A stretch of 64,000 bases of DNA, taken from positions 1-64,000 of the forward strand of contig CAVTRC010000002.1 in NCBI GenBank assembly GCA_963737065.1. The letters are read 5' to 3'. Origin of the DNA: Candidatus Eremiobacteria bacterium. Lineage in GTDB: Bacteria > Vulcanimicrobiota > Vulcanimicrobiia > Vulcanimicrobiales > Vulcanimicrobiaceae. Positions 115 through 61,942 of this stretch are shown one piece after another. Every line of letters starts with the position of its first letter. The first letter of the stretch is position 1. The notes under the pieces were generated by a model. It searched no databases. It saw only the letters and a program-made list of their open reading frames with translations, and had not been told where the DNA came from. Position numbers and translations under genes: made by a program.

Positions 115-366
115 GTGTTAGGTTTGACGACGATTTTAGACCGCTGGGGAAACAGCCTCGGCGTGCGCTTACCCAAAGCGGTAATCGAAAGCGCCGGCCT
201 CCGCGAGGGGGACCGGGTCCATATTCAAGTCGAGAACGGAATGGTCGTTATTCGCGCAGCCAAGCCACGGTATTCGCTAGATGAATTACTTGAGGGAGTC
301 ACACCCGGATCGATGCACGCGGAGAGCGCAACGTCAGGTGTCATCGGCGCTGAAGACATTTGGTAA
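115..366 (+). CDS. mazE: AbrB/MazE/SpoVT-family antitoxin
   Basis: RWGNSLGVRLP N-terminal motif and YSLDELL; stop overlaps toxin start (TAATG); start could be TTG 124. Confidence 0.9.
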   Translation: MLGLTTILDRWGNSLGVRLPKAVIESAGLREGDRVHIQVENGMVVIRAAKPRYSLDELLEGVTPGSMHAESATSGVIGAEDIW

Positions 367-704
367 TGGCCTACGTTCCGGATCGAGGCGACATTGTGTA
401 CGTGGACTTCTCGCCGCAGATCGGCCATGAGCAGGCTAATCGACGGCCTGCTCTCGTGCTAAGTCCGAGCCAATACAATGCGTTGACGGGACTGTTTCTT
501 GTCGTCCCGATAACGTCGAAGGTCAAGGGATTTCGATTCGAGGTGCCGCTGCCTTCAACGTGCGGGACGCAAGGGGTCGTGCTTGCCGACCACGTGAAAA
601 GTTTTGATTGGCGCGGCAGGGGCGCTTTGTTTGAAGAAACGGTACCCGAGACGGTTGTCGATGAGGTCGTTGCGCGGATCGCGGCGCTTCTAAAGCTGAC
701 TTAG
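366..704 (+). CDS. mazF: PemK/MazF-family endoribonuclease toxin
   Basis: YVPDRGDIVYVDFSPQIGHEQANRRPALVLS and VPITS motifs. Confidence 0.93.
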   Translation: MAYVPDRGDIVYVDFSPQIGHEQANRRPALVLSPSQYNALTGLFLVVPITSKVKGFRFEVPLPSTCGTQGVVLADHVKSFDWRGRGALFEETVPETVVDEVVARIAALLKLT

Positions 705-860: not shown

Positions 861-1760
861 ATGTATTTCGGTAAACTGCGTTCTTTGATTTTTCTTTTGC
901 TCTTGGCCGGGTGTGCAGGTTCTGCAACCCCGTTCATCGGCCCGAGCCCGGGATCCATGGTGAACTTTACAAAGCTCGTCAGCATCGGCAGCCGTGGATT
1001 GTTTATGCACTGCGCCGGACCGTCGAACGGGATTCCGATTGTTTTTATCAACGGTGCCGGTGACACGCTCGAAGTGTGGTCGCAGATTCAAGCGTCGCTT
1101 TCGACGGCGGCGCTCACGTGCAGCTACGATCCGGCCGGCATCGGCAGCAGCGATCCGCTGCCCGGATCGACGACGAATCTGGCTGAAGAAGCTTCCGACT
1201 TACACGCGCTCTTAGCAGCAGCGCAAATTCCTTCGCCGCGGCTTATCGTCGGGCACTCGATCGGCGGATCGACGGCGGTGTACTACGCGCATGCCTATCC
1301 TAGGGAGGTCTCGGGAGCGGTGGTACTCGACCCGACGTGGATTCCGGTGTTCCAGTTATCGATCTTGACGCAGGAACTCACGGCCGCGTCATACGATCCG
1401 AACGCGGTTCTCCAAGAGATGCAGAGCGTCACGTCGCTTGGCTCGCTACCATTGACCGTCTTGTCGCATGACCCGAATCTCGGACCGGCCCAAGATCCCG
1501 CGCTTGATGCTCAATTGCATGCCTTGTTTCCGAACCTTGAGACGTTGTGGACCCAAGGGCAAGTCGAGATCGCGCATCTCTCAGCGAAGGGGACGCAAGC
1601 ATCAGTACCCGGCGCGTGGCACTATATTATGCTTGCGGCACCGCAAACCGTTTTAACGGCAATCGAGCAACTCGCCGGGATACCGCCTGGTGAAATTACG
1701 TTCTCCTCGTCAAGAACTGCGCAGCCGACGTCGTCCAGGCACTACACGTCGTTCTTCTAG
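861..1760 (+). CDS. Alpha/beta hydrolase lipoprotein
   Basis: Lipobox LLAGC; YDPAGIGSS; nucleophile motif GHSIGG; C-terminal His (GAWH). Confidence 0.85.
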   Translation: MYFGKLRSLIFLLLLAGCAGSATPFIGPSPGSMVNFTKLVSIGSRGLFMHCAGPSNGIPIVFINGAGDTLEVWSQIQASLSTAALTCSYDPAGIGSSDPLPGSTTNLAEEASDLHALLAAAQIPSPRLIVGHSIGGSTAVYYAHAYPREVSGAVVLDPTWIPVFQLSILTQELTAASYDPNAVLQEMQSVTSLGSLPLTVLSHDPNLGPAQDPALDAQLHALFPNLETLWTQGQVEIAHLSAKGTQASVPGAWHYIMLAAPQTVLTAIEQLAGIPPGEITFSSSRTAQPTSSRHYTSFF

Positions 1761-1919: not shown

Positions 1920-3098
1920 ATGCGGGCTGTCGTCTTAAAGAAACCGCGTGAGATCACGATCGATGAGATCGAGGAGCCGAAAATAAAAGCTCCAACGGAT
2001 GCTTTGCTGCGATTGTCTTCAACGGCGATTTGCGGCACGGATCTGCATATCTATGAAGGCCGGCTCGGCGGCGACAGTTTGGTGATTGGACACGAACCGC
2101 TCGGCACGGTCCAAGACGTCGGGGATGCGGTTGTCAACGTGCGCGTCGGCGACCGCGTCACGGTCCCAACGCATATATGTTGTGGTTTCTGTCGAAATTG
2201 CGTGCACGGTTTTTCCGCGCAGTGCTTAACGACAAATCCGGGCAAGGCGGGTGCTGCTTACGGCTATCCCGGCATGGGTGAGTACGCGGGCGCGCAGACG
2301 GAGATGCTGCGGGTTCCATTCGCCGATGCGAACTGTTTGCGATTGCTGGGTGAACCCGGGGATTCGTGGGAGCACGATTTCGTGCTGCTCGCGGACGCGC
2401 TTCCGACGGCATATCATGCAACCGAACTCGCGAAAATAGTGCCGGGCGACGTTGTAGTGATCTACGGCGCCGGCGCGATCGGACTGCTCACTGCAATGTG
2501 CGCTTTCTTGCGTGGCGCGGAGCAAGTTTTTGTCGTCGATGCAATTACTGAGCGCCTGCAAAAAGCGAGCGAGCTTGGCGCGCAGCCAATCGACATGAAA
2601 GAGGGCGACGCCGTGGAGCGCATTTACGAACAGCTTGCGCGCCAACGATGCGGCGTCGCATGGCGTGGCGAGGAAGCGCAGATCGGCGCGACGGTTGGGA
2701 TTGATGCGGTCGGTTTTCAGGCGCGCGACCCGCACCATTTTGAGATCGAAAAGCCGACGACCGTTATCCATGATCTTGCCCGCATCATCGCTCCCAAAGG
2801 CAGGTTGAGTATCATCGGCGTTTTCACGGACAGCGACGCTCAGGCGCCTAATGAAGCCGCCAAGCACGGCGATCAGCTGATCCCATGGGGCACGCTGTTC
2901 AAAAAGGGCATTCGCGTGGCGTTCGGGCGAGACGACGACGAGCGCTATAACGACTTTCTGCGCGATATGATCGTTGCGGACAGAATCAAGCCCGGCCGCA
3001 TCGTCTCGCACCGGCTGCCTCTACGCGACGCGGCCGATGCTTTCGAGAAGTTTGATGCGCGCAGCGAGGGTTATATCAAGGTGGTTCTCGAGCCTTAA
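1920..3098 (+). CDS. Zn-dependent alcohol dehydrogenase, glutathione-independent formaldehyde dehydrogenase-like
   Basis: CGTDLH, GHEPLG, CGFCRNC structural Zn site, LADALPT, GAGAIG. Confidence 0.9.
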   Translation: MRAVVLKKPREITIDEIEEPKIKAPTDALLRLSSTAICGTDLHIYEGRLGGDSLVIGHEPLGTVQDVGDAVVNVRVGDRVTVPTHICCGFCRNCVHGFSAQCLTTNPGKAGAAYGYPGMGEYAGAQTEMLRVPFADANCLRLLGEPGDSWEHDFVLLADALPTAYHATELAKIVPGDVVVIYGAGAIGLLTAMCAFLRGAEQVFVVDAITERLQKASELGAQPIDMKEGDAVERIYEQLARQRCGVAWRGEEAQIGATVGIDAVGFQARDPHHFEIEKPTTVIHDLARIIAPKGRLSIIGVFTDSDAQAPNEAAKHGDQLIPWGTLFKKGIRVAFGRDDDERYNDFLRDMIVADRIKPGRIVSHRLPLRDAADAFEKFDARSEGYIKVVLEP

Positions 3099-3117
3099 TA
3101 AGGAAGATTGATAACCG

Positions 3118-3384
3118 TTAGGAACGCGCCGGGTACTGCGACCTCGCCTTTTTAACCATGTCGCGCAGCTCTGCTGCGTAGAACGTTACGGCGTCTTTGC
3201 GCAACATGAGGTCGGGAGCGACGCTGCGCGCCGCGTCGTGCACGATCGAGACGCACGTCTCATCACTTGGGAATGCGGCGTCCGACGAGGCGAGCTCGAA
3301 CGCGAATCTCTTTAGCGACTCCCACACGAGTTCCATGACATTGACGTGCGTGTGGACCTTTTTGCCGCGGTCGAGATCTCGCAT
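3118..3384 (-). CDS. Hypothetical protein (88 aa), downstream of the LuxR-type regulator
   Basis: ATG-started ORF with plausible helical composition, 40 bp after the regulator stop. Confidence 0.55.
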   Translation of the reverse strand: MRDLDRGKKVHTHVNVMELVWESLKRFAFELASSDAAFPSDETCVSIVHDAARSVAPDLMLRKDAVTFYAAELRDMVKKARSQYPARS

Positions 3385-3424
3385 GTCTCGTTTCTTATAC
3401 GTCTGGTATCGCGGGTGTCACAGC

Positions 3425-4912
3425 CTACGCGGCAGAGCGGCCGCCGAGGCGAAGCCATTCGCGTGCGAGCTCAGATCGTTTCGACACTTGGAAGATGCGA
3501 TGGAGTACGCGGATATGCTCCTTCACCGTATTTTCCGATAACGAAAGCGCTTCTGCGATCTCGCGGTTCGTCTGCGAAGCTGCTACGCGTTCGAGAATCG
3601 TCTGGCGCCGCGCCGTGACGTGCCGCATCGGGCCGCGCCGCAGCAACAGCTCTTGGAAGAGCGGAGAACGATCGTGGCGCTCGACGAAATCGTGAACCTT
3701 ATCGAGCCAATGCGACATCCGGCTGCAATCGTACGCGCGCAGCGCGGCCAGTGCCGAACGGAACTCGTAGCCGATCTCGTGGAACGTGCGATGCGCCTCG
3801 CGCGCGTGAACCAATGCGGTGTGTTCGTTCGCAGCGACGATAGCGCGTGCTAAAGCACGGAAGCCGCGTACCGCGGGATGCTGCTGCGCACCGAGCGCTG
3901 AGGTGAAGGGCGACTGCTCTACGCGTTCCAGCAAACGCGTCGTTCGCTGCGCGTCGTGCGCGAAGAGTACATCGACGGAGCCATAAAATGAAACGGGCGC
4001 ATCATTCTGAATGGAAAGCCAGTTGATGTCTTCAAATGCGTCAAACGCATGGCGTGCCGCAACCGCTTCATTGACGGCATCGGTTGCAAGTTTGCATATA
4101 CGCGCGCGGTCGGTCGCCGCGACTGCCGCCTGCAAGGACGACGTAGCCATCGGTAAGCGGTCGAGCCGATAAATTGCGTCGATGTAGTTTCCGTCTTGCG
4201 CCGCAAGCCACGCAAGAGCGCGCTCACAATAGAAGCGATCGTCGTTGCGCAATTCTTGCCAGTTGATGGCGCGCAGCAAATCGCAGACGCGTGGTCCGAT
4301 TTCGCCCAAATCCGTTTCACGCGCGAGCACGGCCAACGGGTGCGCGATAATGCCGATGAGACCAACGTCGACGTTGTGCTCGAGCGCAATGGTGAGCGCG
4401 TTGCTGAGGATCGCTGCGCGCTGCGATAGCGAATGCGTCGCCCACGCTCGAAGTTCGAGCTGTTGAACCCGTTGCGTCGGCGTCTTCGGACGCGCGTTGC
4501 GCAGGAGCGCGACCGCCTCATCGTGGTCGCCATCCATCCATCGAAGCAGCGCGTGCATTCGCATGACGTCCGCTTCAATGAGCGCGTCCGTTGCGTGTTC
4601 AACCGGCGGAGTGCATGAGACGTGCGAAGACATCGCGCGTTCTGCATAGATGCGGAAAAGCGTCGCGAGGCGTCGATCGTCATCGGAAAAGCGTTGCAGA
4701 AACGCAGATGCCGCGACGATATCATTCCATCGCCGTTGGCGAGCAGCAATATCGACCAGCAGCCGCGCGTCATCGCGACTCGCGGGCTGAGCGAGTATTT
4801 CGCGCGCTTCTTTGTACGCTCCGCGGCGGAACGCGGCAAGGGCGATTTCGTAGTTGGTCAAGGGCGCCTTCGTATAAAGCAATTCGAGATTGGTGTCGAC
4901 CTTGGCTGACAC
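3425..4912 (-). CDS. Helical-repeat (TPR-like) protein with C-terminal LuxR-type HTH; putative peptide-sensing regulator
   Basis: C-terminal TARRQTILERVAASQTNREIAEALSLSENTVKEHIRVL is a LuxR/GerE HTH; Ala-rich helical body with no Walker A or receiver domain seen; GTG 4912 has RBS AAGGAGGT 8 nt upstream. Confidence 0.85.
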   Translation of the reverse strand: MSAKVDTNLELLYTKAPLTNYEIALAAFRRGAYKEAREILAQPASRDDARLLVDIAARQRRWNDIVAASAFLQRFSDDDRRLATLFRIYAERAMSSHVSCTPPVEHATDALIEADVMRMHALLRWMDGDHDEAVALLRNARPKTPTQRVQQLELRAWATHSLSQRAAILSNALTIALEHNVDVGLIGIIAHPLAVLARETDLGEIGPRVCDLLRAINWQELRNDDRFYCERALAWLAAQDGNYIDAIYRLDRLPMATSSLQAAVAATDRARICKLATDAVNEAVAARHAFDAFEDINWLSIQNDAPVSFYGSVDVLFAHDAQRTTRLLERVEQSPFTSALGAQQHPAVRGFRALARAIVAANEHTALVHAREAHRTFHEIGYEFRSALAALRAYDCSRMSHWLDKVHDFVERHDRSPLFQELLLRRGPMRHVTARRQTILERVAASQTNREIAEALSLSENTVKEHIRVLHRIFQVSKRSELAREWLRLGGRSAA

Positions 4913-4952
4913 CCGGCTCGACCTCCTTCGCACTCTTGGCCCTTAAGACCGC

Positions 4953-5156
4953 CTACTTCGAGGGGCCCCCGATCGAATCGGCGGTTTTCGGCTGTTGTGA
5001 CGGGCCGCCGATGGAATCGCTGCCCGACACGCGCGACGGCGCGGCGATTCGATGAGGCGGCGTGACGGTGGTCGCCGATGGTCCTCCGATCGAATCGGCG
5101 GGCGCGACCCAGCCTACCATAGCGGTTACGAGGGTGAAGAAAAGCGAAGTCAGCAT
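4953..5156 (-). CDS. Small secreted precursor peptide with three DSIGGPS repeats
   Basis: RBS AAAGGAG 7 nt before ATG; hydrophobic N-terminus ending in APA; three identical heptapeptides encoded with different synonymous codons. Confidence 0.85.
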   Translation of the reverse strand: MLTSLFFTLVTAMVGWVAPADSIGGPSATTVTPPHRIAAPSRVSGSDSIGGPSQQPKTADSIGGPSK

Positions 5157-5181
5157 CGAGCGGCTCCTTTGAAACAGACTT

Positions 5182-5199
5182 CTAGTAGCACCCTACTAG
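5182..5199. promoter_or_regulatory. 18-bp palindrome CTAGTAG-CACC-CTACTAG, candidate operator
   Basis: Perfect 7-bp arms in the divergent intergenic region, 25 bp upstream of the peptide gene. Confidence 0.55.
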
Positions 5200-5281
5200 G
5201 TTTATCGAGAAAATGGGAGTCGTCTCCCGGTTTTTGTGACTTTTTTGTGGCGCGACCCGGTGGGCATACTTAAATTTCCCG

Positions 5282-5755
5282 ATGGTCGATCTACTGCGGG
5301 TTCGGTACGCTTTGCCCATGGACTTCCCGGGGTTCCGCGCAAAGCCGCTCACCGTGAGCGCCGGTCAGCGTTCTTTCGTGTGCCGTCGCCGGCAGCACGC
5401 ACGGCTGACCAGTTTCCAAGCCGCCATCTGGGCCGGCCGGATCGGCGAGCAATTTGGCTTCGAACCGGCGCAGAACTCATCGTTGCGAAGCGCGGCGAGG
5501 GCGGCGGCTTTCGCACGTCTCGCCGGGTGCGTTACGAACCGCCGTCGGATGCCGCGAGAGTGGGAAGCGATCGTCTCGGTCGCGCTCGAATTTACCGCCG
5601 CCATTTCGCCGTTCGAAGGCGCACCGGCCGTCCCGAACCACGCGATTCGAACGCTACTCGATTCGCCCGAGTCACCGCGTCGCGCAGCGGCGTATGCGCT
5701 CGCCGGGTGCTTGGCGTTCGCGACAACTACTCGCGCCCGAATGTCCGCACGGTAG
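5282..5755 (+). CDS. Hypothetical protein, possibly degenerate HD-GYP-like
   Basis: IVSVALEFTAAISP loosely resembles the HD-GYP C-terminal helix (I.AVAD.F.A.TS); catalytic HD absent; TAAATT just upstream of ATG. Confidence 0.45.
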   Translation: MVDLLRVRYALPMDFPGFRAKPLTVSAGQRSFVCRRRQHARLTSFQAAIWAGRIGEQFGFEPAQNSSLRSAARAAAFARLAGCVTNRRRMPREWEAIVSVALEFTAAISPFEGAPAVPNHAIRTLLDSPESPRRAAAYALAGCLAFATTTRARMSAR

Positions 5756-5756
5756 C

Positions 5757-6152
5757 TTAGGGACCGCGGTACGCCAAGTCGAGGATGCGGAAGACTTGCC
5801 CACCCGGTGCGGCAAAGTAGCGGTGCGGGCTCGCGGGATGCGTAAACGACGCAATTCCCGCGCGGTCTAGACGCTCGTGCACACCCGCTACATCGCCGGT
5901 CCGGAACTCGATCCACGCGCCTTTGAAGGCATTTTCGTACACCGGCTTCTCTGGTGAGCGAGGCGCAAGGTCCGAGAACTCGACGCTAAACGCGCTCTTA
6001 TCCGGAAACGAGACGAGCAGAATCGGGTGCGGCAGCCCGAAGTCCCGTTCGTGCACATCACATCCGAGCACGTCTCGGAATAACGACGTGAACGCGTCCA
6101 GGGATTCCGGACGCACGAAGAGGTGCACCCGCGCCCCGAGTCCCTCAATCAT
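5757..6152 (-). CDS. VOC/glyoxalase-family protein
   Basis: FRDVLG, WIEFRTGDV and YFAAPGGQVFRI pattern; size. Confidence 0.75.
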   Translation of the reverse strand: MIEGLGARVHLFVRPESLDAFTSLFRDVLGCDVHERDFGLPHPILLVSFPDKSAFSVEFSDLAPRSPEKPVYENAFKGAWIEFRTGDVAGVHERLDRAGIASFTHPASPHRYFAAPGGQVFRILDLAYRGP

Positions 6153-6364
6153 CGGCGTGACAAAGCGGCATCTGGTTCATGCGCTGCGCTTTACACGCAC
6201 CGGCGCATGAGCCATTTGATCGGCTTGCCTGGTCGATGATTTCAGTCACTTCGTAAACCGATTTTGGGTAAACGCCGGTATAGCCACGGCTCTTCGTGTA
6301 GATCTGAAACTCGCGACTTATCAACCGGGATGTGGCTCGCCCGGCACGCTAGGAGATACGATAT

Positions 6365-6682
6365 ATGTTTAATGATGTGGCTGGCCTACTAAAGCAGGTG
6401 ACCACCGGTCAGGTCGATCAGTCGTCGGTGTCGCAAGCCGCAAGCGACCACGTTTCTTCGATGGACCATGCCGACCTGACGCAGCACCTCCAAACGGCGG
6501 CAAATAACGCCGATCAGAACGGGCAGACGGACGTTTCGCAGCAGATCATCGGGATCATCGAACGCGATCGCACCAACACGCAGGCGCTCAAACAAGATGC
6601 CATTTCTCTGATCACAAGCAACCCGCAGATCCTCGAACAGTTCGCTCCCGAATTCGCAAAGAATCTCCTTAGCCGCATTTGA
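6365..6682 (+). CDS. Hypothetical protein
   Basis: RBS AGGAG; coherent helical ORF 1 bp before the next gene. Confidence 0.75.
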   Translation: MFNDVAGLLKQVTTGQVDQSSVSQAASDHVSSMDHADLTQHLQTAANNADQNGQTDVSQQIIGIIERDRTNTQALKQDAISLITSNPQILEQFAPEFAKNLLSRI

Positions 6683-8076: not shown

Positions 8077-9480
8077 TTAGTTGCAGCCGTTCGTCGTTAG
8101 AAGAACGTACGCGTCGAAGTTCGCGACATGAAGCGGGTTCGATATCGCGCGTCCGACGAGATCGCGATAGGTATGACCGCTGGGAAGCGTTGCCACTTCG
8201 CTTGAAAGCGACGATCCGCTGTTCACGACCACGAGTGCATTAGTGAAGCGGCGATACCATACATTCGGGCTTGGTGAGGTTCCTTGATACGCGTCTTCGC
8301 ACGCAGTGCCGAAGTTCGTCGCGTATAACGAATTGTATTGCTCGACTCCGTAGGCGGTGCTGTTACCCGCGAACAGCCCTTCAGCGCCTTCGTTCCCCAT
8401 GAGGTATGTGGCGATCGAATGCTCGATTTGCGTCGTTGAAAGCGCTGTCGTTTGCACGTATTTATCGATAATCAGCGGCGCCACGCCGTGCGCTTGCGCG
8501 TAGCGAACCCAATTGAGCGTCAGCGCGAAGAGCGACGTCGTGCTCGTGTACTTGCCGTAATCGGAATAGCCGGTTTCGTCGACGTCGGCATCCACGTTCG
8601 CAAGAAGAGTTTGCTCGTTCGCGCTGTTGATATTGCCGGCGGGGTGGTTGACGATGAACTTGAGTCCCTCCAACGCGGCGAGACTGTGCGCGGTTTGCGC
8701 CCACGCAACCGTGTCGGTTGCCCACCGTGTATCCGTCTTGCTGCTGTACCGCCGCACGAACGTGCTGCCTTCATAGATGCCGCACGCATACGCGCCGCTG
8801 CCGGCCGCTGCGCCGCCGGCGTTCCAGAAGACGACTTCATCGGCCGCGAGTGCATTGTATCCATTCGCTCGCGCGTATGCCGCTGCCGCTTTGACTTGGT
8901 AACTTACGACCGACGGATTGTGAAAGTCGAGCGGAATATTGGTGGTCAGGCCGCCGACGTACGCGGGGATCTTTGTTGGCGTTCCGGTCGCCGTGCATGA
9001 GTACAAAATCCAATCGGGATGGTATGTCTGCCACCACGCGAGATTGTGGCCTGCAGCGCCCCATGCCGAATAGCTCAAATCGGTTTCTTGCGGAAAATAG
9101 TACGAAGCAATAATGCTCGAATTGCCTGCGAGCCAGGCTGGTGCCATTCCGGGGCGAGCACCCCAAATGACGCCATACCGTTTTGCGTCGGCCTCTGCGG
9201 CCGCTGGTGAGATGCGCGGCGTCCCCATAACATCGAAGACTTGAAATAACCCGACGCCTATTTTCGCCTGCGGCATGAGCGTGGTCGTTGAACCGGTCAT
9301 CGGAGATGCGGCCGTGGCGCTCATTGGGACGGCCAGGGTTGATTGAGGAGTCGATGACACAGGAGCCATCATTGAACCGGCATCCGATCCGCCGCCACAC
9401 GCAGCGAGGGGAGCCGCCAATATCGCAACGAGTGCGACCTTTAGAACGTGGTTCTTGTTCACGCTACGGTCGTCGGACAC
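8077..9480 (-). CDS. Secreted lipoprotein, putative glycoside hydrolase-like domain
   Basis: Lipobox LAAC; S/T/P linker; aromatic-rich domain with HPDWILY, PLDFHNP, ADEV, DETGY, RRFTN..VVVN (resembles GHL15-like families); start uncertain. Confidence 0.7.
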   Translation of the reverse strand: MSDDRSVNKNHVLKVALVAILAAPLAACGGGSDAGSMMAPVSSTPQSTLAVPMSATAASPMTGSTTTLMPQAKIGVGLFQVFDVMGTPRISPAAAEADAKRYGVIWGARPGMAPAWLAGNSSIIASYYFPQETDLSYSAWGAAGHNLAWWQTYHPDWILYSCTATGTPTKIPAYVGGLTTNIPLDFHNPSVVSYQVKAAAAYARANGYNALAADEVVFWNAGGAAAGSGAYACGIYEGSTFVRRYSSKTDTRWATDTVAWAQTAHSLAALEGLKFIVNHPAGNINSANEQTLLANVDADVDETGYSDYGKYTSTTSLFALTLNWVRYAQAHGVAPLIIDKYVQTTALSTTQIEHSIATYLMGNEGAEGLFAGNSTAYGVEQYNSLYATNFGTACEDAYQGTSPSPNVWYRRFTNALVVVNSGSSLSSEVATLPSGHTYRDLVGRAISNPLHVANFDAYVLLTTNGCN

Positions 9481-9653: not shown

Positions 9654-11372
9654 TTAGCAGCCGCCGCTGCCGAGCAGAATGTATGCGTTGGCCGGGCTCG
9701 CACTCAGTGTCGTGCCCGTGATGCTGCCTCCCATCGAGTCGCTGTATAGGCCGCCGAGGGGGACCGCCGCAGAACTCTTACTCGGATTGACGACGACGAT
9801 ACCGTGCGAGAACTTCCGAACGTACGCGGATCCGACCGTGGTGTACGAGCCGCACGACTTTCCGAGTTGCTGGTTGATCTTCGTGATTTGCCCGAAGTCG
9901 TAGACCGCGCCATACGGGCCGGGGGTGATGAAGAGTGACGCCTTTCCTTCGTTGCCAATCAGGTAGCTGCCGATTGCGTACGCGAGCTGCGAAGCCGTGA
10001 GGCCGAAGTTGCTTGCGTCGCCGTTGAGGCTGCCGCTGAACTTCGCGGTTTCGAGAATCGTCTTGCCTTGGTGTTGAACGTACTCCATGTACGAGAGCGC
10101 CGTCGCAAAGAGATCCGGTGCAGTCGCATACCGTCCATAATCGACGAAGCCCGTTTCATCGACCATCCCGTCGACGTTCGCAACGAGCTTCTCCTCGTCG
10201 GGATTCGCGATGCTGCCGGCGGGGTGATTTACGAACAGTTTCAACTTGTGCGCAGCGAACGTCGGGTTCGATGCAACAATCTGTTTTGCGGTTGCGACCC
10301 ACGCCGCTACGTCATGGTTCCACTGCGGATCGTGGTTCGGAAAACCACCGCCCGGCGAGCCCCAGCGACGTACGAACGTGCCGTTCTGATAGATCCCGCA
10401 ACCGTAGTACCCCGACTCCTGACCGCCGTCATAATCGAAGAACAACGTTTGGTCGGCACCGATTGCATTTGCGCCGTGCGCGATCGCGAAGTTTCCGACC
10501 GTTTCAATTTGATACTGAATGACGGCCGGGTTGTGAATGTCGAGCGGCACGTCGCCCGGGAGACCCGGCTGATATGCGACCGTGTGCGTCGGCTGGTTGT
10601 CGGCGTTGCAGTCGTAGACGACCCAGTCCGGATGATTTGCTTCGAACCACGCGATGGTGTGGCCCGAAATCGGGTGGTAGTCCGTCGGCTGAACGAAATA
10701 CTGAATTGCGGCGAGCTTCGGATTTGCCGAAATCCATTTTCTAGCAGTCGCGCCTTCGTCGCCATCGCCGGCGCCCCATACGGCTGACGTTTTGTTCGCC
10801 ACTGCTTGCGCTTGCGCCGCGGTGGTGGAGTAGTCAAAGATCTGGAACATGCTGACGGCGCCCGCGACGCCGCCGCCTCCAATCGGCCCCGGCGCGACGG
10901 TAGGGACGGGGCTCGGCGAAGCGCTGGGATGTGAAGGCGGCGGCACGGTCGTGCCGGTTGATACGACGGACGCGCTCGCCGCTTGAAAGTTGCCCAGCGA
11001 ATTATAAAAACCGGTGGCCTTCACGACGTCGCCGACTTTCGCGCGATTTATTTCACTGGAGTAGATCGAGACGTTGCCTTTACCTTGGATCGCGGCCACG
11101 ACGTGGAAGTACGGCGTCGTCGATATGCTGTTGACCGGCCCTTGAATCGTCACGTACGACGACGATGCCATGGGCGACGAGGCCGCTGACGACGATGCCG
11201 CTGACGACGCTGCGGCCGGCGACAATGCCGGTGACGACGATGCGGCTTGCGGTATCATCGGCGCGGGATCGGGGCCCGGCGGCGTGACGCCGGAGCTCGG
11301 ACCACCGGAGCACGCGCTCGCGGAGAGCGCGAAGAACAATAGCAAACAGAAGCGTTTGAAGAAACGTCTCAT
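9654..11372 (-). CDS. Secreted lipoprotein, paralogue of 8077-9480 with an extra N-terminal beta domain
   Basis: Lipobox ASAC; shares FQ.FD, WGA, HPDW, PLD.HNP, CGIY, NHPAG, DETG..DYG, YL.GNEG with its neighbour. Confidence 0.75.
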   Translation of the reverse strand: MRRFFKRFCLLLFFALSASACSGGPSSGVTPPGPDPAPMIPQAASSSPALSPAAASSAASSSAASSPMASSSYVTIQGPVNSISTTPYFHVVAAIQGKGNVSIYSSEINRAKVGDVVKATGFYNSLGNFQAASASVVSTGTTVPPPSHPSASPSPVPTVAPGPIGGGGVAGAVSMFQIFDYSTTAAQAQAVANKTSAVWGAGDGDEGATARKWISANPKLAAIQYFVQPTDYHPISGHTIAWFEANHPDWVVYDCNADNQPTHTVAYQPGLPGDVPLDIHNPAVIQYQIETVGNFAIAHGANAIGADQTLFFDYDGGQESGYYGCGIYQNGTFVRRWGSPGGGFPNHDPQWNHDVAAWVATAKQIVASNPTFAAHKLKLFVNHPAGSIANPDEEKLVANVDGMVDETGFVDYGRYATAPDLFATALSYMEYVQHQGKTILETAKFSGSLNGDASNFGLTASQLAYAIGSYLIGNEGKASLFITPGPYGAVYDFGQITKINQQLGKSCGSYTTVGSAYVRKFSHGIVVVNPSKSSAAVPLGGLYSDSMGGSITGTTLSASPANAYILLGSGGC

Positions 11373-32523: not shown

Positions 32524-34098
32524 GCGACGACTTCCTTGGCGCGATAGACGCCGAACACGTCGCGGAGCACGTTGCAGATTTCGCCGAGGGTCGCACCCGC
32601 GTCGACTGCGTCGATGAAATGCGGCATCAGATTGTCGCGTCCGGCCGCCGCGGCGCGAACGTCGTCCAGCCGTACGCACACGAGCGCGTTGTCGCGCTGC
32701 GCGCGGAAGCGTTGGAGACGGCCCGTCTGTTCGCGTTCGATGCGCTCTTCGATGCGCTGCAACGGTATCTTTAGCTCACCGTCCGCCTTCGGAAAATTCG
32801 TTCACGCCGACGACGACCGCGTCACCGCGCTCGATAGCTTGTTGTGCCTGATATGCGGAATCGGCAATACGGCTTTGCATCCATCCCGACTCGATCGCGG
32901 CGATGCTTCCGCCCATTTCATCGACTTCGGCAATGAGGGCACGTGCGCGTTCGATTAGCTCGTTCGTGAGCGATTCGACGTAATACGATCCGGCAAGCGG
33001 ATCCACGATATCGGCGACGCCCGATTCGTACCCGATGATCTGCTGCGTGCGAAGGGCTAACTTTGCGCTTTCGGCGGTTGGAAGCGCAAGTGCTTCATCT
33101 TTGCCGTTCGTGTGCAGCGATTGTGTGCCGCCCAGGACAGCCGCGAGCGCTTGCAGCGTAACGCGAACCACGTTGTTGTCCGGTTCTTGCGCGGTGAGCG
33201 TCGAGCCGGCCGTTTGCGTGTGGAAGCGAAGCATCTGCGAGCGCGGGTCCTTGCAGCCGAATTCATCGCGCGTGATATGTGCCCACAAGAAGCGCGCGGC
33301 ACGGAACTTCGCGACCTCTTCGAAGAAGTCGTTATGCGCATTCCAAAAGAACGAGATCCGCGGCGCTACGACGTCGAGATCGATACCCGCGTTACGCGCG
33401 GCATGCAAGTATGCTTTCGCGTTGGAGAGCGTGAACGCGATCTCTTCGACGGCCGTGGAGCCGGCTTCCCGAATGTGATAGCCGGAGATCGAAATCGTGT
33501 TCCACTGCGGCACGTGCTGCGCGCAATACGCCATGAGATCGGTAACCAGCCGCATCGACGGTTCCGGCGGATAGATGTAGGTTCCGCGTGCGACATACTC
33601 CTTGAGCACGTCGTTTTGCACCGTGCCTCCCAGCTTCTCGAACGGGATGCCGCGACGGCGAGCGACGGCGAGCAGCATCGCGAGCAGAACGGACGCCGGC
33701 GCATTGATCGTCATCGAGACCGTCACCCGATCGAGCGGAATGCGATCGAAGAGCGTCTCCATGTCGGCAACGGAATCGATTGCAACACCGACCTTTCCGA
33801 CTTCGCCCCGCGCAATCGGCGCATCGGAGTCATGACCGAGCTGCGTCGGAAGATCGAACGCGACGGACAGTCCGGTCGTGCCGCGCTCGAGCAGATATCG
33901 ATAGCGCGCATTCGACTCGGCTGCCGTTGCAAAACCCGCATACTGGCGCATCGTCCACAGACGGCCGCGATACATGTCGCGACGGATTCCGCGACCGAAC
34001 GGAAATGCGCCCGGCTCACCCAAGTCGTGCGGCGTTCCCCGCGTGCGGTCGTATGTCGACTGCAGCGGTATGCCGCTTGCATTTTCATCCCTTGCCAT
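32520..34098 (-). CDS. Methylmalonyl-CoA mutase large (substrate-binding) subunit, split type (+1 frameshift near 32776)
   Basis: [40 protein letters not shown]-terminal ATLGEI lies in the next frame; no B12-binding domain. Confidence 0.93.
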
Positions 34099-34209
34099 GC
34101 CGCCGGAATGTTTCGCGAAAGAATGGCTTGCACCGCTTTCGTTCGAACGCCTTCGGATGAACACAATGCTGGAGCGCGCTGCCGCGGCGCAAGCGGACAA
34201 GAGACTGTC

Positions 34210-34803
34210 GTGACGATACCGGACGGTTATCACGACGTACCGCCCGGCAAGCTGGCAAACGTTGTCACGAACCTTGAAATGTTTGCGCGTCCGCCCGTGC
34301 GTGCCGATCCGCCCGGCGTTCGCGCGAGGTTGCGGCGGATGGAACGGCCGCCGCTCGACGAGTATCGCGCGCTCTTTCATAAAGTCGGCGACGAGTATCT
34401 GTGGATGTCGCGCCTGGTAATGAGCGACGAAGAACTGTCGTCCGTCGTGCACGATCCGCTCGTTGAGATTTACGCGGTCGCATACGAAGGCGACGACGAG
34501 GGAATGCTCGAGCTGGATTTTCGGAACCAACCAGAAGCGGAGCTCGTATTTTTCGCGCTCACCGGCCGTCTCATTGGAACCGGAACCGGACGGTGGCTGA
34601 TGAACCGCGCGCTCGACGTCGCATGGTCGCATCGGATCCGCCGTTTGTGGGTGCACACGTGCACGCTCGATCATCCGAATGCGGTGGATTTTTACATTCG
34701 CTCCGGTTTTGTGCCGTTCAAACGGCAAGTCGAAGTTTGCGACGATCCACGGCTGATGGGCGCGGCGCCGCGTGACGCGGCCGCGCATATCCCGCTACTC
34801 TAG
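34210..34803 (+). CDS. GNAT-family N-acetyltransferase
   Basis: [28 protein letters not shown]. Confidence 0.88.
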
Positions 34804-36558
34804 TGTGACCAGCGGTGAATTCGCTTCGACGGTCACGCCGGGTTCCGCGTGAACTGCGGTCACCGTTCCCGCGCGATGCGCGCGGATTTCGTTCATCATT
34901 TTCATCGCTTCGACGACCGCGACGACTTGGCGCTCCTCGACCGCTTCGCCCACGTTGACCTTGATTTCAACGACCGCGCCGTGCATCGGCGAGATGATGT
35001 CGTTGCCGTGCGACGTCGCCGCGGCTTTCTTTGAAATCGCGCGCCGCGGCGCGCCTTTTGCTTCGGTCGCCGGTGATATTGCTGCGGTGCGGCCGTTCGG
35101 CACGTCGAGCACGCGAACGCGATACATCCGTTCGTTGATCTCGACGCGAATCACGGGCGATGCTTGCGCCTGTTCCGACACGGGCGCGCGAACTTCACCG
35201 TTGGTCTTGGCGGCGAAATGTGCGGCGGCGAACGGCTCCAGCGTTGCCGTCCCGTACGTCGCGTCGAGCACCGGCGGATAGTCGCAAAGCGCGCGAAGCA
35301 GCGGGAGCGTCGTTGGTACGCCTTCGATGACGTATTCGTCGATCGCGCGTCGCAGACGCGCAATCGCTTCGCCGCGCGTCGGCGCCCACACGACCAATTT
35401 CGCAATCATCGAATCGTAGTCCGGAGAAATCGTATAACCCGGATACGCAGCGCTGTCGACCCGTACGCCGAGACCGCCCGGCTCGCGATACGACGTGATC
35501 GTCCCGGGCGCAGGCCGGAAGTTTGCTGCCGGATCTTCCGCGTTCACCCGCCCCTCGATCGCGAAACCGCGGAAGTCGATATCGTCTTGTGCAAAGCCGA
35601 GCTTTTCGCCCGCGGCGATGCGAATCTGCTCGCGTATCAAGTCGATTCCGGAGATCATTTCGCTCACAGTGTGCTCGACTTGGATGCGCGTATTCATCTC
35701 GAGAAAGAAGAACTCGTCTCCCGAGACGAGACATTCGATCGTGCCGACGGAGTCATAACCGATCGCCTGTGCCGCGCGCACGCCTGCGTCGCGCATGGCG
35801 CGCCGTACCTTCAGCGGAATCTGCGGCGGCGCTTCTTCCCAGACTTTTTGATGGCGGCGCTGCAGCGAACAGTCACGCTCGCCGACATGGAGCACCGTGC
35901 CGTGTTTGTCGGCAAGGATCTGCAGCTCGACGTGTTTGGGATTTTCGAGATACCGCTCGGCGTAGATCGTTCCGTTCTTGAAATACGCCTCCGCTTCGCG
36001 TTGCGCCGTCGTGAACGCGGATTCGATCTCGTCAAGCGTCCGCGCGACCTTCAATCCTTTGCCGCCGCCGCCGCCCGATGCTTTGAGCGCGAGCGGCAAA
36101 CCGTATTGCTGCGCCGCGCGCTTCGCACCCGCGACGTCCGGAATCGCTTCGGTGCCACCCGGGACAAACGGGACGTTCGCTTGTTGCATCGCTTGACGCG
36201 CTCGCAGTTTGTCGCCCATCGCCTCGACTGCATCTGCGTGCGGGCCGATCCATACGAACCCCGAAGCAACGACGCGCCGTGCAAATGCAGCGTTTTCCGC
36301 GAGGAACCCGTATCCCGGATGAATCGCTTGCGCTTCCGAACGCATGGCGACATCGAGAATCGCATCCGCGTTGAGGTAGCTCTGCGACGGTGCGGCAGGA
36401 CCAACGAGATAGGCCTCGTCCGCCATGCGTACGTGCATGCCGTCTCGATCCGCTTCGGAATAGATCGCAACGGTTGCGATGCCCATTTCGCGAGCGGTGC
36501 GAATAATACGGACCGCGATCTCGCCGCGGTTCGCGATGAGAATCTTAGTGAAGGGCAC
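34795..36558 (-). CDS. Acyl-CoA carboxylase alpha subunit (biotin carboxylase + BCCP)
   Basis: ANRGEIA, HPGYGFLAEN, EMNTRIQVEH, biotin site EAMKM. Confidence 0.95.
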   Translation of the reverse strand: MPFTKILIANRGEIAVRIIRTAREMGIATVAIYSEADRDGMHVRMADEAYLVGPAAPSQSYLNADAILDVAMRSEAQAIHPGYGFLAENAAFARRVVASGFVWIGPHADAVEAMGDKLRARQAMQQANVPFVPGGTEAIPDVAGAKRAAQQYGLPLALKASGGGGGKGLKVARTLDEIESAFTTAQREAEAYFKNGTIYAERYLENPKHVELQILADKHGTVLHVGERDCSLQRRHQKVWEEAPPQIPLKVRRAMRDAGVRAAQAIGYDSVGTIECLVSGDEFFFLEMNTRIQVEHTVSEMISGIDLIREQIRIAAGEKLGFAQDDIDFRGFAIEGRVNAEDPAANFRPAPGTITSYREPGGLGVRVDSAAYPGYTISPDYDSMIAKLVVWAPTRGEAIARLRRAIDEYVIEGVPTTLPLLRALCDYPPVLDATYGTATLEPFAAAHFAAKTNGEVRAPVSEQAQASPVIRVEINERMYRVRVLDVPNGRTAAISPATEAKGAPRRAISKKAAATSHGNDIISPMHGAVVEIKVNVGEAVEERQVVAVVEAMKMMNEIRAHRAGTVTAVHAEPGVTVEANSPLVTLE

Positions 36559-36697
36559 GCAACTCTTCCATTCCCAGCTCGGGCATTCGAGCGGCGGTCT
36601 TCCAACGCGAGACCGTCGATTGCGGCGCGTTCACCTCGGAGGCTTCGGTGAGCAGATCGAGCGCGACGACGAGCGCGGCCATTTCGTCTTCGCTCAC
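36545..36697 (-). CDS. Putative acyl-CoA carboxylase epsilon-like small subunit (50 aa)
   Basis: MSEDEMAALVVALDLL...SRWKTAAR; GTGA overlap with the fabI stop and overlap with the alpha-subunit start; below the ORF-track size cut-off. Confidence 0.65.
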   Translation of the reverse strand: MSEDEMAALVVALDLLTEASEVNAPQSTVSRWKTAARMPELGMEELRALH

Positions 36698-37485
36698 TTC
36701 AATGTGAAATCAGGCGGAATCATCCCCACCGCATGATACCCGCCATCGACAAAGTGCACGTCCGCCGTAATCGCCGACGAAAGGTCCGACGCAAGATACA
36801 CGGCGGTGTTGCCGACGTCTTCAGCGGTGACGTTGCGCCGAAGCGGCGCGACTTGCGGTACGACGTCGAGCATTTTCGTCGCGCCCGAAACCTGGCGCAT
36901 GCTGGCGGTTTTGATCGGTCCTGCCGAGATCGCGTTGACGCGAATGCCACGATTTCCGAGGTCGTACGCTAGATAGCGCATCGACGACTCGAGCGCTGCC
37001 TTCGCAATTCCCATCAAGTTGTAGTTCGGCACGATGGCTGTTGCCCCAAGATACGTCAGCGCCATGATCGAGCCGTTGTCGTTGATGTCGTCGCGAAGCG
37101 TCGATACGAGCGCGATCAGCGAATACGCCGAAACATCGAGGCAAAGCGAAAAACCGCCGCGCGTCGTGTCGTACACGGTCCCACGCAAGTCATTTTTGTC
37201 GGCAAAGGCGATCGAGTGCACGAGCCCGTCGATCTTCCCGAACGACGATACGAGCTCGTTGCGCATCGCTTGCAGCGACTCGTCTTTAGAGACGTCACAT
37301 TCGATGACCGTGCCGCCGCCGAGTTCCGTTGCGAGTCGCTCGACTTCATCCTTGACGCGTTCGCCCTGGTACGTGAACGCCAGCGTCGCGCCGTGCTCGT
37401 GCATTTTGTGCGCGATGCCCGTCGAGATCGACCAGCGATTGGCAACGCCCGTAATGAGGACGCGCTTTCCTTCAAGCAGCTTCAC
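36694..37485 (-). CDS. fabI: Enoyl-ACP reductase
   Basis: GVANRWSI, LVHSIAFA, YNLMGIAKAALE, NAISAGPIKT. Confidence 0.95.
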   Translation of the reverse strand: MKLLEGKRVLITGVANRWSISTGIAHKMHEHGATLAFTYQGERVKDEVERLATELGGGTVIECDVSKDESLQAMRNELVSSFGKIDGLVHSIAFADKNDLRGTVYDTTRGGFSLCLDVSAYSLIALVSTLRDDINDNGSIMALTYLGATAIVPNYNLMGIAKAALESSMRYLAYDLGNRGIRVNAISAGPIKTASMRQVSGATKMLDVVPQVAPLRRNVTAEDVGNTAVYLASDLSSAITADVHFVDGGYHAVGMIPPDFTLK

Positions 37486-37657
37486 GTACGCTAGATACCA
37501 TCGCAACCGACGGCGACCTTCTCGAAGCAGCAGCGCAGACACGCGCGATGGATCGCGACGCAGATGGTGGCGTGCGAACAACACCGAGCGCGCTCAATGC
37601 GCGTCTTTCACCATGAACCGACCGGTCGGCAAGACGTTTGCCGAACGCTCGCGTCTC

Positions 37658-39211
37658 CTAGAGCGGAATGTTGCCGTGCTTGCGCTTTGGTCGCTCGACG
37701 CGCTTGTTTTCCAGCATCTCGAGCGCGGTCGCAATCGCTCCCCGCGTCCGATGCGCCTCGATGACGTCATCGACGTAGCCGCGCTGTGCCGCGATGTACG
37801 GATTCGCAAAGCGTTCGGTGTACTCGTCGATCAGTTCTTTCGTCTTTGCGTCTTTGTCCGCGGCCGCGGCGATTTCGCGGCGATCGATCACCTTGACCGC
37901 GCCCTCCGCGCCCATCACGGCAATTTCGGCCGTTGGCCATGCCAGGTTGATGTCGGCGCGAATGTGCTTCGACGCCATAACGTCATATGCACCGCCGTAC
38001 GCTTTGCGAGTGATCACCGTAATTTTCGGTACGGTCGCCTCCGCGAAGGCATAGAGCAGTTTCGCGCCGTGTAAAATGATGCCGCCGTACTCTTGATCGG
38101 TGCCCGGCAAGAACCCCGGAACGTCAACGAACGTGATCAACGGGATGTTGAACGCGTCGCAAAAACGTACGAAGCGCGCCGCTTTGATCGACGACTTGAT
38201 GTCAAGCACGCCGGCGAGCACGTTCGGCTGGTTCGCGACGACGCCGATGCTGCGTCCCGCGATGCGCCCGAAGCCGCAGATGATGTTTTGCGCGTAGTGC
38301 GGTTGAATCTCGAAGAAGTCACCGTAGTCAAGCACGCCTTCGATCACCTCGTGCATGTCGTACGGCTTGTTGGGCGAGTCGGGGACGAGATCGTTGAGTT
38401 CGGGCGTTTCACGTTGCGGATCATCGTCGGTCGTGAAGCGCGGTGCGTCGTCTAAATTGTTCTGCGGCATATACGAGAGCAGCAGCTTCGTCGATTCGAC
38501 GAGATCGTCTTCATCGCTCGCGACGACGTGCGCGACGCCGCTTCTCGTCGCGTGCGTCATCGCGCCACCGAGTTGCTCGAACGTCACGTCTTCACCGGTC
38601 ACCGTTTTGATGATTTCCGGACCGGTAATGAACATCTGCGAGATATGCTCGGTCATCAGAACGAAGTCCGTGATCGCGGGCGAGTACACGGCTCCGCCGG
38701 CGCACGGACCGGCGATAAGGCTCAGTTGCGGAATAACGCCGCTCGCCTGAACGTTGCGCCAAAATATCTCGGCATAACCGCCGAGCGATACGACACCCTC
38801 CTGAATGCGTGCGCCGCCGGAGTCGTTGACGCCGATCATGGGCGAACCGGTCCGCACGGCAAGGTCCATGACCTTGCAAATCTTCTCTGCGAACGCTTCG
38901 CCGAGAGAACCGCCCAGCACCGTGAAGTCTTGAGAGAACACGAAGATCTGACGGCCGTCGATCGTTGCGCGTCCCGTAATCACGCCGTCGCCGAGGAACT
39001 CTTTGTCGTCTAAGCCGAACGCATTTGTCCGGTGCACGACGAACTGATCGAGCTCGGTGAACGACCCATCATCGACCAGCGCTTCGATCCGTTCGCGCGC
39101 GGTGCGTTTACCGCGCGCATGCTGACGTTCGATGGCGTCAGTGCCGGCGGGCGCTTGCGCGAGCGCGCGCTTGCGCGCGAGTTCTTCATATTTTTCCCCG
39201 TGCGATCTCAC
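37658..39211 (-). CDS. pccB: Acyl-CoA (propionyl-CoA) carboxylase beta subunit
   Basis: [47 protein letters not shown]. Confidence 0.93.
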
Positions 39212-55693: not shown

Positions 55694-55749
55694 CGCGTTG
55701 TTGTGAAACCCCCGAACTAACGATCGCCGAACGTGCGGCGCAACATCGA

Positions 55750-57129: not shown

Positions 57130-57329
57130 TGCGCCGCACCGTGTTAATGCTCGCGCTGCTGCTCATTGCGGCGGTCGAGATTCCGCAGTCCGAAATTGAC
57201 GCCGACAATGCGCGATGGAAAGCTTTCGGCGTGAATGCCGCCAGCGGCGGCAATCGTAAGCGCCGCCCGAAATTCTGCGTCAATGGATCAGCGCGCAGCG
57301 GCTCCGCGACGCATCCGGTCCGCACGTAG
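57129..57329 (+). CDS. Short secreted ORF, possibly truncated
   Basis: TGATG overlap with the GH47 gene; signal-peptide-like N-terminus MRRTVLMLALLLIAA. Confidence 0.35.
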   Translation: MRRTVLMLALLLIAAVEIPQSEIDADNARWKAFGVNAASGGNRKRRPKFCVNGSARSGSATHPVRT

Positions 57330-57856
57330 AGTACGCGACGGATTCGTGCTTTGCGAACGCGTTGCACTTCAATTTAGAAGAGTAGCTTTGTGCAAACCTT
57401 GCGCAACCGTGATGGAGCTCGAACCTGCCGCCGCGCTCGCGCGCTAGCACCGCACGTCGCGCAAGACGGACCACTCTCACAGGCGTGTGCCGCTACTGCG
57501 GTGCGCGCCGATGGCGGCCGCGGCTGCGCTTCACCTCGTTCTCTCGGCGCAGGCTCACGTTCGGTGACTGCTGAGGAGCTGCGCCAGCGCGCCCTCGGCT
57601 TCGCTCGAGGCCAAATTCGACGATTCGGCCGCCGGAGAAATATCGAACGCGGCCTCATCGCGTATCTTAGCGCCGCAAACGTGGCGGCCGTCGCACGTAC
57701 GTCGCGCTGCCGGAAGAGCCGATTTTTCATTCCAAGCGATGCCACACCGATGGCACGGCGGTTTAGCAGAATTACAAGGCGCGACTGTCGGTGATGCACC
57801 GACTTCGGCGGACGTTTGAGAACGCTCGCACGAGCGCATGCATCACGGCCTTCGAA

Positions 57857-58429: not shown

Positions 58430-58572
58430 TTGTGACCATGTTGAAGAATCTTCTGAGCGACTTGCGGGACTTCGTCCAGATGTTTTTCGATCCGGAAGCA
58501 GTCTACGCACGCAATATCAAACCGGCACGCGGGCTCGATGCTCCGCGCGAGGACTGGAGCTACCCTCGATAG
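58426..58572 (+). CDS. Small hypothetical protein (48 aa)
   Basis: ATGA overlap with the upstream gene; followed by a terminator; not in the ORF track. Confidence 0.45.
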   Translation: MIVTMLKNLLSDLRDFVQMFFDPEAVYARNIKPARGLDAPREDWSYPR

Positions 58573-58589
58573 GGCAAGCGCATTTTTGC

Positions 58590-58625
58590 GAAGGGCGTCG
58601 GGAAACCGGCGCCCTTCTGCTTTCT
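58590..58625 (+). terminator. Probable terminator
   Basis: GAAGGGCGTCGG-gaaa-CCGGCGCCCTTC hairpin with T-rich tail. Confidence 0.6.
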
Positions 58626-59440: not shown

Positions 59441-59450
59441 GGAACGTCCG

Positions 59451-60198: not shown

Positions 60199-60199
60199 G

Positions 60200-60233
60200 A
60201 CGCGATACTATTCGATATATCGCGTAATGTCAA
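60200..60233 (-). promoter_or_regulatory. Sigma70 promoter TTGACA-N17-TAGTAT overlapped by palindromes; candidate PadR operator
   Basis: Consensus -35 and 17-bp spacer; ACGCGATA-N10-TATCGCGT and CGATATATCG palindromes. Confidence 0.7.
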
Positions 60234-60271
60234 GCGGGCTTGTGCGCCGGCTCGCCTAAGACCCCTCCGCT

Positions 60272-61933: not shown

Positions 61934-61942
61934 CGACGCGGA

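Follow-up and report, generated by a model that had tools for sequence, protein, structure and literature searches.

The window analysed in this work is a stretch of 64,000 nucleotides of a Candidatus Eremiobacteria bacterium (Vulcanimicrobiota; positions 1 to 64,000 of contig CAVTRC010000002.1). The subject is a pair of genes on its minus strand: a short gene for a peptide with three copies of the heptapeptide DSIGGPS and, directly downstream, the gene for a regulator that ends in a LuxR-type helix-turn-helix (HTH) domain. A previous reading of the letters alone, in the following called the sequence-only reading, had interpreted the pair as a peptide signal and its receptor.

From position 5156 down to position 3118 the minus strand carries three consecutive open reading frames (ORFs) of 67, 495 and 88 amino acids, and both gaps between them measure 40 nt. 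The peptide gene (4953..5156, stop codon included), defined by its ORF and translation, has a GC content of 0.57/0.63/0.75 at the three codon positions. By inspection, a Shine-Dalgarno sequence, AAGGAG, was located at 5164..5169, 7 nt before the ATG. The regulator gene (3425..4912, stop codon included) starts with a GTG at 4912, and its Shine-Dalgarno sequence AAGGAGGT was found, likewise by inspection, at 4921..4928, 8 nt before this GTG; an alternative in-frame GTG at 4933 would overlap the latter motif. Thus, only 40 nt on one strand separate the stop codon of the peptide gene from the start of the regulator gene, and each of the two genes is equipped with a strong Shine-Dalgarno sequence. 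On the minus strand no terminator-like site was found between the two genes. The short same-strand gap together with this result suggests that the peptide and regulator genes are co-transcribed. A search for a sigma-70-type promoter consensus within 3000-6400 found none.

The 67-aa peptide consists of a hydrophobic N-terminus of 20 residues and a tail of 47 residues, which is rich in Pro, Gly, Ser and Thr and contains the three DSIGGPS units. Copy 1 (5076..5096, minus strand; residues 21-27) is preceded by A and followed by A, copy 2 (4998..5018, minus strand; residues 47-53) is preceded by S and followed by Q, and copy 3 (4959..4979, minus strand; residues 60-66) is preceded by A and followed by K and the stop codon. 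Hence, the first copy starts directly after the sequence Ala-Pro-Ala and the third copy stops one residue short of the C-terminus. Tandem Repeats Finder detected no tandem array over 4900-5200, and the spacers between the copies are therefore unrelated. The heptapeptide was not encountered again in the six frames of the window. The coordinates and motifs stated in the sequence-only reading could all be reproduced, and its observation is confirmed. In 200,000 composition-preserving shuffles of the peptide no 7-mer ever occurred three times, and a 7-mer occurring twice was seen in four of them. A degenerate fourth unit at residues 35-41 (3/7 identical, by eye) was considered as well and was dropped for insufficient support.

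The three 21-nt DNA copies of the unit differ in five columns (pairwise differences 5, 3 and 4). These variable columns are exactly the five four-fold-degenerate third positions, namely those of the Ser, Gly, Gly, Pro and Ser codons, and the Asp and Ile codons are identical in all three copies. The chance that five variable columns fall on exactly these five sites is p = 4.9e-5, and for the weaker statement that all of them fall on third positions it is 1.0e-3. Since the synonymous sites have drifted and the amino acids have been kept, selection acts on the peptide and not on a DNA or RNA motif; judged by its codons, the DSIGGPS heptapeptide is under purifying selection as protein. This signal of selection is unusually clean and strengthens the observation made in the sequence-only reading. 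The 67-aa ORF is very probably a real, translated gene. Its GC content at third codon positions (GC3, 0.75) lies within the range of the neighbouring genes.

These findings bear on a different explanation, according to which the repeats are a non-coding element and act as DNA binding sites or as a structured RNA leader that controls the regulator. Within the peptide ORF (4959-5103) imperfect inverted repeats of 13-15 nt are present, which are 80-87% complementary. They stem in part from a near-complementarity between the DNA that encodes the beginning of the heptapeptide and that for residues 35-39, and they may add structure to the mRNA. In addition, the 331-nt leader folds slightly better than shuffled sequences (z -1.81; 4/100 shuffles as good). 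Against this stand the confinement of the copy differences to four-fold-degenerate third positions, the strong Shine-Dalgarno sequence at 7 nt and the GC3 of the ORF. Moreover, the comparison of the window with Rfam gave 0 matches at the gathering threshold, and over 4800-5800 at E<=1 there were none that convinced, only two meaningless sub-threshold matches. An RNA element as main explanation was rejected for want of an Rfam family and for a leader folding that barely exceeds that of the shuffles. We consider a non-coding function of the repeats highly improbable.

The second gene of the pair encodes a regulator with a C-terminal GerE/LuxR-type HTH domain (residues 433-484; 3461..3616, minus strand), which was recognised by Pfam PF00196 with an E value of 6.7e-10, above the gathering score. 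The matches to NCBIfam models (response regulators, SdiA, CsgD, EpsA and PA1136-type proteins) are confined to the HTH part of the regulator, those to response-regulator models lying at residues ~425-490. Besides GerE, Pfam gave a sub-threshold match to TPR_12 and, over the HTH, a weak match to Sigma70_r4_2. A receiver (REC) domain, an autoinducer-binding domain and an AAA/STAND ATPase domain were found neither with Pfam nor with NCBIfam. This agrees with the sequence-only reading, which had seen no receiver, N-acyl homoserine lactone (AHL)-binding or AAA/LAL ATPase domain.

The sequence-only reading had further presumed that the body of the regulator is a TPR-like solenoid, and the structural prediction bears this out. 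The AlphaFold2 (AF2) model calculated from an alignment of eight homologues (pLDDT 89.2, pTM 0.83) is entirely helical, without any strand. It consists of an all-alpha TPR-like solenoid of about 20 helices (residues ~20-412; 3677..4855, minus strand), a short linker and the HTH, which is made up of four helices (model residues 434-494). Residues 1-13 are disordered in the model, and the homologues begin about 25 residues further in.

The sequences of the PDB were searched with a profile built from 57 members of the family. Positions 8-200 matched TTC21B (2.5e-14), SRP72 (2.5e-9) and a designed consensus TPR protein (8e-8), and the last 60 positions matched GerE (1fse, 5.6e-15), NarL (2.6e-13) and also DesR. 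With the regulator model as query, Foldseek retrieved only TPR solenoids from the PDB. TTC7B came first (E 8.2e-4) and apo NprR, 5dbk_A, second (E 1.2e-3, TM 0.57 normalised on NprR); Rap-phi105 with peptide and NprR-NprX followed at ranks 26 and 27. In between were subunits of APC/C, LGN, CCR4-NOT and IFT, all with E values of about 1e-3. TPR solenoids bind short extended peptides, and the body of the regulator is, by prediction, a TPR-like solenoid of this peptide-binding fold class.

Relatives of the regulator were sought with a word-indexed search and with an exhaustive profile search of 1.84 billion cluster representatives. The former gave seven full-length relatives with 44-57% identity and one distant TPR/CsgD protein. 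The latter gave 415 representatives at E<=1e-10, 64 of them with E<=1e-30, mostly proteins of about 500 aa aligned end to end. Residues conserved in the family include W218, R231, W235, D268, R385 and W402. The nearest ESM Atlas clusters consist of GerE proteins of 397-574 aa, and in some of these clusters 16-42% of the members also carry TPR_12 or TPR_19. The clusters belong most often to Vulcanimicrobiota, which NCBI places in the kingdom Bacillati, and then to Actinomycetota; this is an indirect pointer to an origin of the window in Vulcanimicrobiota. An architecture of TPR and LuxR_C is tabulated for Rhodococcus, Saccharopolyspora, Streptomyces griseus and Thermobifida in the part of PMC3466318 that we draw on. 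In view of this tabulation and of the 415 representatives, the order of TPR domain followed by LuxR domain is not new. The claim of a new receptor architecture made in the sequence-only reading therefore cannot be upheld as far as the protein alone is concerned.

A scan of a genome-contig collection, which does not include the window's own genome, with an alignment of eight regulator sequences yielded 14 loci, all of which belong to other LuxR families and match the HTH region only. Likewise, tblastn of the regulator against plasmids hit two records, both in the HTH only. The 64-kb window holds no paralogue of the regulator or of the peptide elsewhere. A literature search, mostly at the depth of result listings, turned up neither a ligand nor an adjacent peptide gene for TPR-LuxR proteins; at the same depth it revealed no TPR-LuxR regulator paired with a peptide gene and no quorum sensing of this kind in Eremiobacterota.

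We now return to the N-terminus of the peptide. Residues 1-20 (5097..5156, minus strand) form a segment that resembles a signal peptide or a membrane anchor. Its mean Kyte-Doolittle value is 1.65, it contains no K, R, D or E, its hydrophobic stretch is 16-17 residues long, and it ends with Ala-Pro-Ala directly before copy 1. Cleavage sites of signal peptidase I are described by the -3/-1 rule, by which the Ala-Pro-Ala|Asp junction is a plausible site. As a whole, the peptide resembles a precursor: copy 1 adjoins the presumed signal-peptidase site, copy 3 is C-terminal and the spacers are rich in Pro, Gly and Ser. Export through the hydrophobic N-terminus appears plausible but atypical.

Because this N-terminus is devoid of Lys and Arg, it could alternatively serve as an uncleaved anchor with a cytoplasmic tail. 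In this case the peptide would be a membrane-tethered partner, whose DSIGGPS units dock in the TPR grooves of up to three regulator molecules. Similar to an anti-sigma factor, it would retain these at the membrane until they are released by a signal or by proteolysis. Several features suit such an arrangement. Apart from the missing positive charge, the hydrophobic stretch is rather long for an h-region, and the tail carries four K/R versus three D/E. TPR domains bind extended peptide motifs intracellularly, and three identical units would be appropriate for multivalent capture. Furthermore, a relationship exists between the GerE HTH and region 4 of sigma-70, and the weak Sigma70_r4_2 match recurs in 47/57 family members. 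On the other hand, the sequence Ala-Pro-Ala followed by Asp fits a signal peptidase I site, and the first unit begins exactly there. With a tail that carries a net charge of only +1 and an anchor flanked by acidic or neutral residues, the positive-inside rule does not point clearly either way. We know of no precedent for a tethered repeat peptide paired with a TPR regulator, and we regard this arrangement as quite unlikely.

Among known systems, the pair most invites comparison with the RRNPP(A) systems (Rap/Phr, NprR/NprX, PlcR/PapR, Rgg/SHP, PrgX and AimR/AimP), in which the gene for a small pro-peptide likewise adjoins that for a cytoplasmic receptor with a TPR superhelix. The sensor of these receptors comprises 5-9 TPR motifs and forms a superhelix with a concave peptide pocket, as described in excerpts of PMC9765709. 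For the window regulator, model, profile and fold matches agree on an all-alpha TPR-like solenoid of about 20 helices, and solved RRNPP receptors, in part with bound peptide, rank among its better structural matches. In RRNPP systems the pheromone usually corresponds to the last 4-10 residues of its precursor (PMC10075063, in part), and the candidate mature unit of the window precursor also lies at the very C-terminus. Likewise, several pheromone copies per pro-peptide are known from some Rap-Phr, AimR, PlcR and NprR systems (PMC11343458 and PMC9765709, in part). A polyvalent precursor, as proposed in the sequence-only reading, is not new either.

The differences are equally clear. In the window regulator the solenoid is N-terminal and the HTH is C-terminal and of the GerE/LuxR type, whereas the HTH of the RRNPP receptors is N-terminal and of the XRE type. 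The window pro-peptide contains a hydrophobic region but has no basic N-terminus. Its host belongs to Vulcanimicrobiota, whereas RRNPP(A) systems are found in Bacillota and their phages and mobile elements. With Pfam and NCBIfam neither the regulator nor the 57 family members matched the Rap, NprR, PlcR, Rgg, PrgX or AimR families, and RRNPP receptor families do not occur among the 60 PDB sequence matches listed for the family profile. Domain order, sequence homology and taxon thus all argue against membership, and the pair does not belong to RRNPP.

Other kinds of regulators share parts of the architecture. The TPR+LuxR_C 'orphan' regulators of Actinomycetota and Vulcanimicrobiota have the same architecture and size (about 435-575 aa) as the window regulator; the difference is that in the window the gene for a candidate ligand lies directly upstream. 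With the LuxR/FixJ/GerE family the regulator has the C-terminal four-helix GerE-type HTH in common. It differs from AHL-type LuxR receptors in lacking the N-terminal autoinducer-binding domain, its N-terminal part being all-alpha, and from NarL/FixJ response regulators in lacking the N-terminal receiver domain. In MalT a helical-repeat sensor precedes a C-terminal LuxR-type HTH and the ligand is a sugar, not a peptide. The window regulator resembles the MalT/LAL proteins in this order of sensor and HTH, but has no N-terminal AAA/STAND ATPase domain and is about half their size.

As to the peptide, the precursors of ribosomally synthesised and post-translationally modified peptides (RiPPs) can be multi-core, such as those of the cyanobactins, and then hold several identical short cores split by spacers. 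The window precursor is similar in that it carries several identical units separated by spacers. In contrast to such clusters, genes for a modification enzyme, a protease and an exporter were not seen among the 57 window ORFs scanned with Pfam. More precisely, the scan of the 10 + 47 neighbouring ORFs gave no RiPP-type modification enzyme, ABC exporter or oligopeptide permease (Opp) system, and no processing protease, exporter or immunity gene was seen near the peptide. This is in line with the sequence-only reading, which had likewise noticed no RiPP modification enzyme nearby. The lack of a modification enzyme and of a dedicated exporter in the vicinity fits an unmodified, Sec-exported signal.

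Taken together, we tentatively favour the reading, possible rather than probable, that the two genes form a secreted peptide and its cytoplasmic receptor, similar to RRNPP systems in logic, in which the domain order is inverted and the output domain is of the LuxR type. In favour of this link are the apparent co-transcription of the two genes, the precursor-like layout of the peptide and a regulator whose sole sensor candidate is a solenoid of a peptide-binding fold class. We infer the following course of events. The 67-aa precursor would be exported via its hydrophobic N-terminus and cut after Ala-Pro-Ala, which would expose the first DSIGGPS. Extracellular or periplasmic proteases would then free up to three heptapeptides, or slightly longer or shorter forms, and the released peptide would be taken up again by the cell. 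Inside, it would bind in the concave groove of the TPR-like solenoid of the regulator and would thereby change how well the C-terminal LuxR-type HTH can dimerise on DNA. One candidate target site would be a palindrome before the peptide gene, in which case the system would be autoregulated.

This palindrome is a perfect 7-4-7 inverted repeat, CTAGTAG-N4-CTACTAG (5182..5199), 25 nt upstream of the peptide ATG. Its size is about that of the inverted repeats to which LuxR-type HTH proteins bind as dimers. The repeat occurs once in the window; a match with <=3 mismatches was obtained in 24/100 shuffles, and the repeat is not significant by itself. As a candidate autoregulatory site it is a lead only, and an RNA hairpin formed by these bases is just as conceivable.

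Several observations weigh against the interpretation as a peptide signal with its receptor. First, the pairing of peptide and regulator is a single instance. Of 191 word-sharing candidates of 36-118 aa the query alone was recovered, of 2845 candidates of 119-2000 aa none (0/2845), and the ESM Atlas had no usable match to the peptide. The same database contains the peptide and the seven regulator homologues (44-57%), yet no similar peptide surfaced. A literature search for the DSIGGPS motif found no mention of it. By these searches the peptide is an orphan and the regulator is not. Second, for the large TPR-LuxR family (the 415 representatives) no peptide partner was found in the literature search, and it is therefore quite possible that the ligand is something other than the 67-aa peptide.

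Third, the absence of K and R from the N-terminus of the peptide is atypical for an export signal, and the three other exported-looking proteins nearby (861-1760, 8077-9480 and 9654-11372) all have K or R within their first ten residues. Canonically, RRNPP pro-peptides open with a short basic segment and continue with a long hydrophobic region, as stated in the available part of PMC10075063. Fourth, the regulator resembles RRNPP receptors in a generic way only: in the structural comparison eukaryotic TPR proteins reach equally good scores, and the sole match at E<=0.001 is TTC7B. Finally, an oligopeptide permease was not seen among the window ORFs scanned with Pfam; oligopeptide permeases are usually encoded elsewhere in the genome.

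In summary, the peptide-signalling interpretation given in the sequence-only reading is partly supported: the very probably real and selected peptide, the TPR-LuxR regulator and the linkage of their genes stand, whereas the novelty of the parts is lost and the lack of a basic n-region counts against it.

A single instance and a peptide without relatives in the protein searches would also be expected if both genes were real and merely happened to be adjacent without any functional link. However, the 40-nt gap on the same strand without an intervening terminator-like site suggests co-transcription, and we regard unrelated neighbours as improbable.

Another way to account for the orphan peptide next to a regulator that is none is to regard the peptide as a product under the control of this regulator. 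It would then be an exported surface or matrix peptide, an antimicrobial or a signal for another receptor, and the TPR-LuxR protein would control transcription in response to a different input. LuxR-family regulators commonly adjoin the genes they control, the large regulator family has no known peptide partner, and the peptide gene is preceded by a palindrome. On the other hand, the peptide gene appears to share a transcript with the regulator gene, in which it is located upstream, and does not lie in a separate target operon. Furthermore, an unmodified Pro/Gly/Ser-rich tail of 47 residues with three identical units and unrelated spacers resembles a precursor and not a folded product, and exporter, immunity and modification genes were not seen nearby. 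We consider a regulated product of this kind rather unlikely.

If the reading as peptide signal and receptor applies, a wider claim could follow. Genetically encoded peptide signals with cytoplasmic TPR receptors have so far been regarded as a feature of Bacillota and their phages, as far as the excerpts of PMC10075063 and PMC9765709 show. The window pair could be the first peptide quorum-sensing design outside Bacillota, with an N-terminal TPR sensor and a C-terminal LuxR-type HTH, and the TPR-LuxR 'orphans' of Vulcanimicrobiota and Actinomycetota (hundreds of clusters) could at least partly be receptors for neighbouring peptides that are small, evolve fast and mostly lack annotation. We regard this generalisation as unlikely.

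Should the window pair prove to be real, peptide quorum sensing of the RRNPP logic would extend to a barely cultured phylum, and many TPR-LuxR regulators of unknown ligand would gain a testable class of ligands. Consequently, genome scans should then look for short repeat-bearing ORFs beside TPR-LuxR regulators. RRNPP_detector explicitly discards the N-terminal TPR layout, according to the available part of PMC10075063, and such detectors thus filter out this class by design. If the peptide were merely a regulated product or a membrane partner, the result would be a modest annotation of an orphan gene.

Upstream of the palindrome a second inverted repeat, 5-4-5 in size, is located at 5215..5228. 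It has T-runs on both strands, is terminator-like and may mark the 5' boundary of the unit. A stretch of about 530 bp (5230-5756), which separates the peptide gene from the next gene on the minus strand, shows the highest GC content of the neighbourhood (0.62-0.65) and contains no convincing gene. ORF157 (5282-5755, plus strand) has a GC3 of 0.73, an atypical GC content of 0.60 at second codon positions and no family match; if real, it would point away from the peptide gene, and both inverted repeats would lie in the 125 bp between the two.

At the other end of the unit, 40 nt past the stop codon of the regulator gene, lies ORF88 (3118..3384, minus strand; 88 aa, GC3 0.78), which may be the third gene of the peptide-regulator unit. 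Pfam and NCBIfam gave no family match for it. From its single sequence AF2 predicts, with confidence, a three-helix bundle (pLDDT 83), for which the search for folds in the PDB returned no match at E<=0.001. A gene for a zinc-type alcohol dehydrogenase on the plus strand ends at 3098. Since it is convergent to the minus-strand unit, the unit ends near this position.

Farther away, two metabolic blocks span 32776-39211 (minus strand) and 54140-63163 (plus strand). One contains genes for methylmalonyl-CoA mutase, biotin carboxylase, an enoyl-ACP reductase-like protein and a carboxyltransferase, the other is a histidine-utilisation block with genes for an aromatic amino-acid (histidine) ammonia-lyase, urocanase and an amidohydrolase. 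Given these ordinary metabolic genes, the locus is chromosomal, without an obvious mobile element.

At the beginning of the window the overlapping genes of a MazE-type antitoxin (115-366, plus strand) and a PemK/MazF-type toxin (360-704, plus strand) form a type II toxin-antitoxin pair. They are followed by a gene for an alpha/beta-hydrolase with a lipobox signal peptide (861-1760, plus strand), 1.7 kb from the regulator gene and on the other strand. The hydrolase has weak matches to models of S33 serine aminopeptidase, proline iminopeptidase and lactonase; a role of it in processing the Pro-rich peptide would be pure speculation. Two adjacent paralogues on the minus strand (8077-9480 and 9654-11372) are 35% identical over 415 residues and have lipobox-type signal peptides and linkers rich in Ser, Ala and Pro. 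For the longer of the two (9654-11372) Pfam gave a match below threshold to GHL15, which is a family of hypothetical glycosyl hydrolases.

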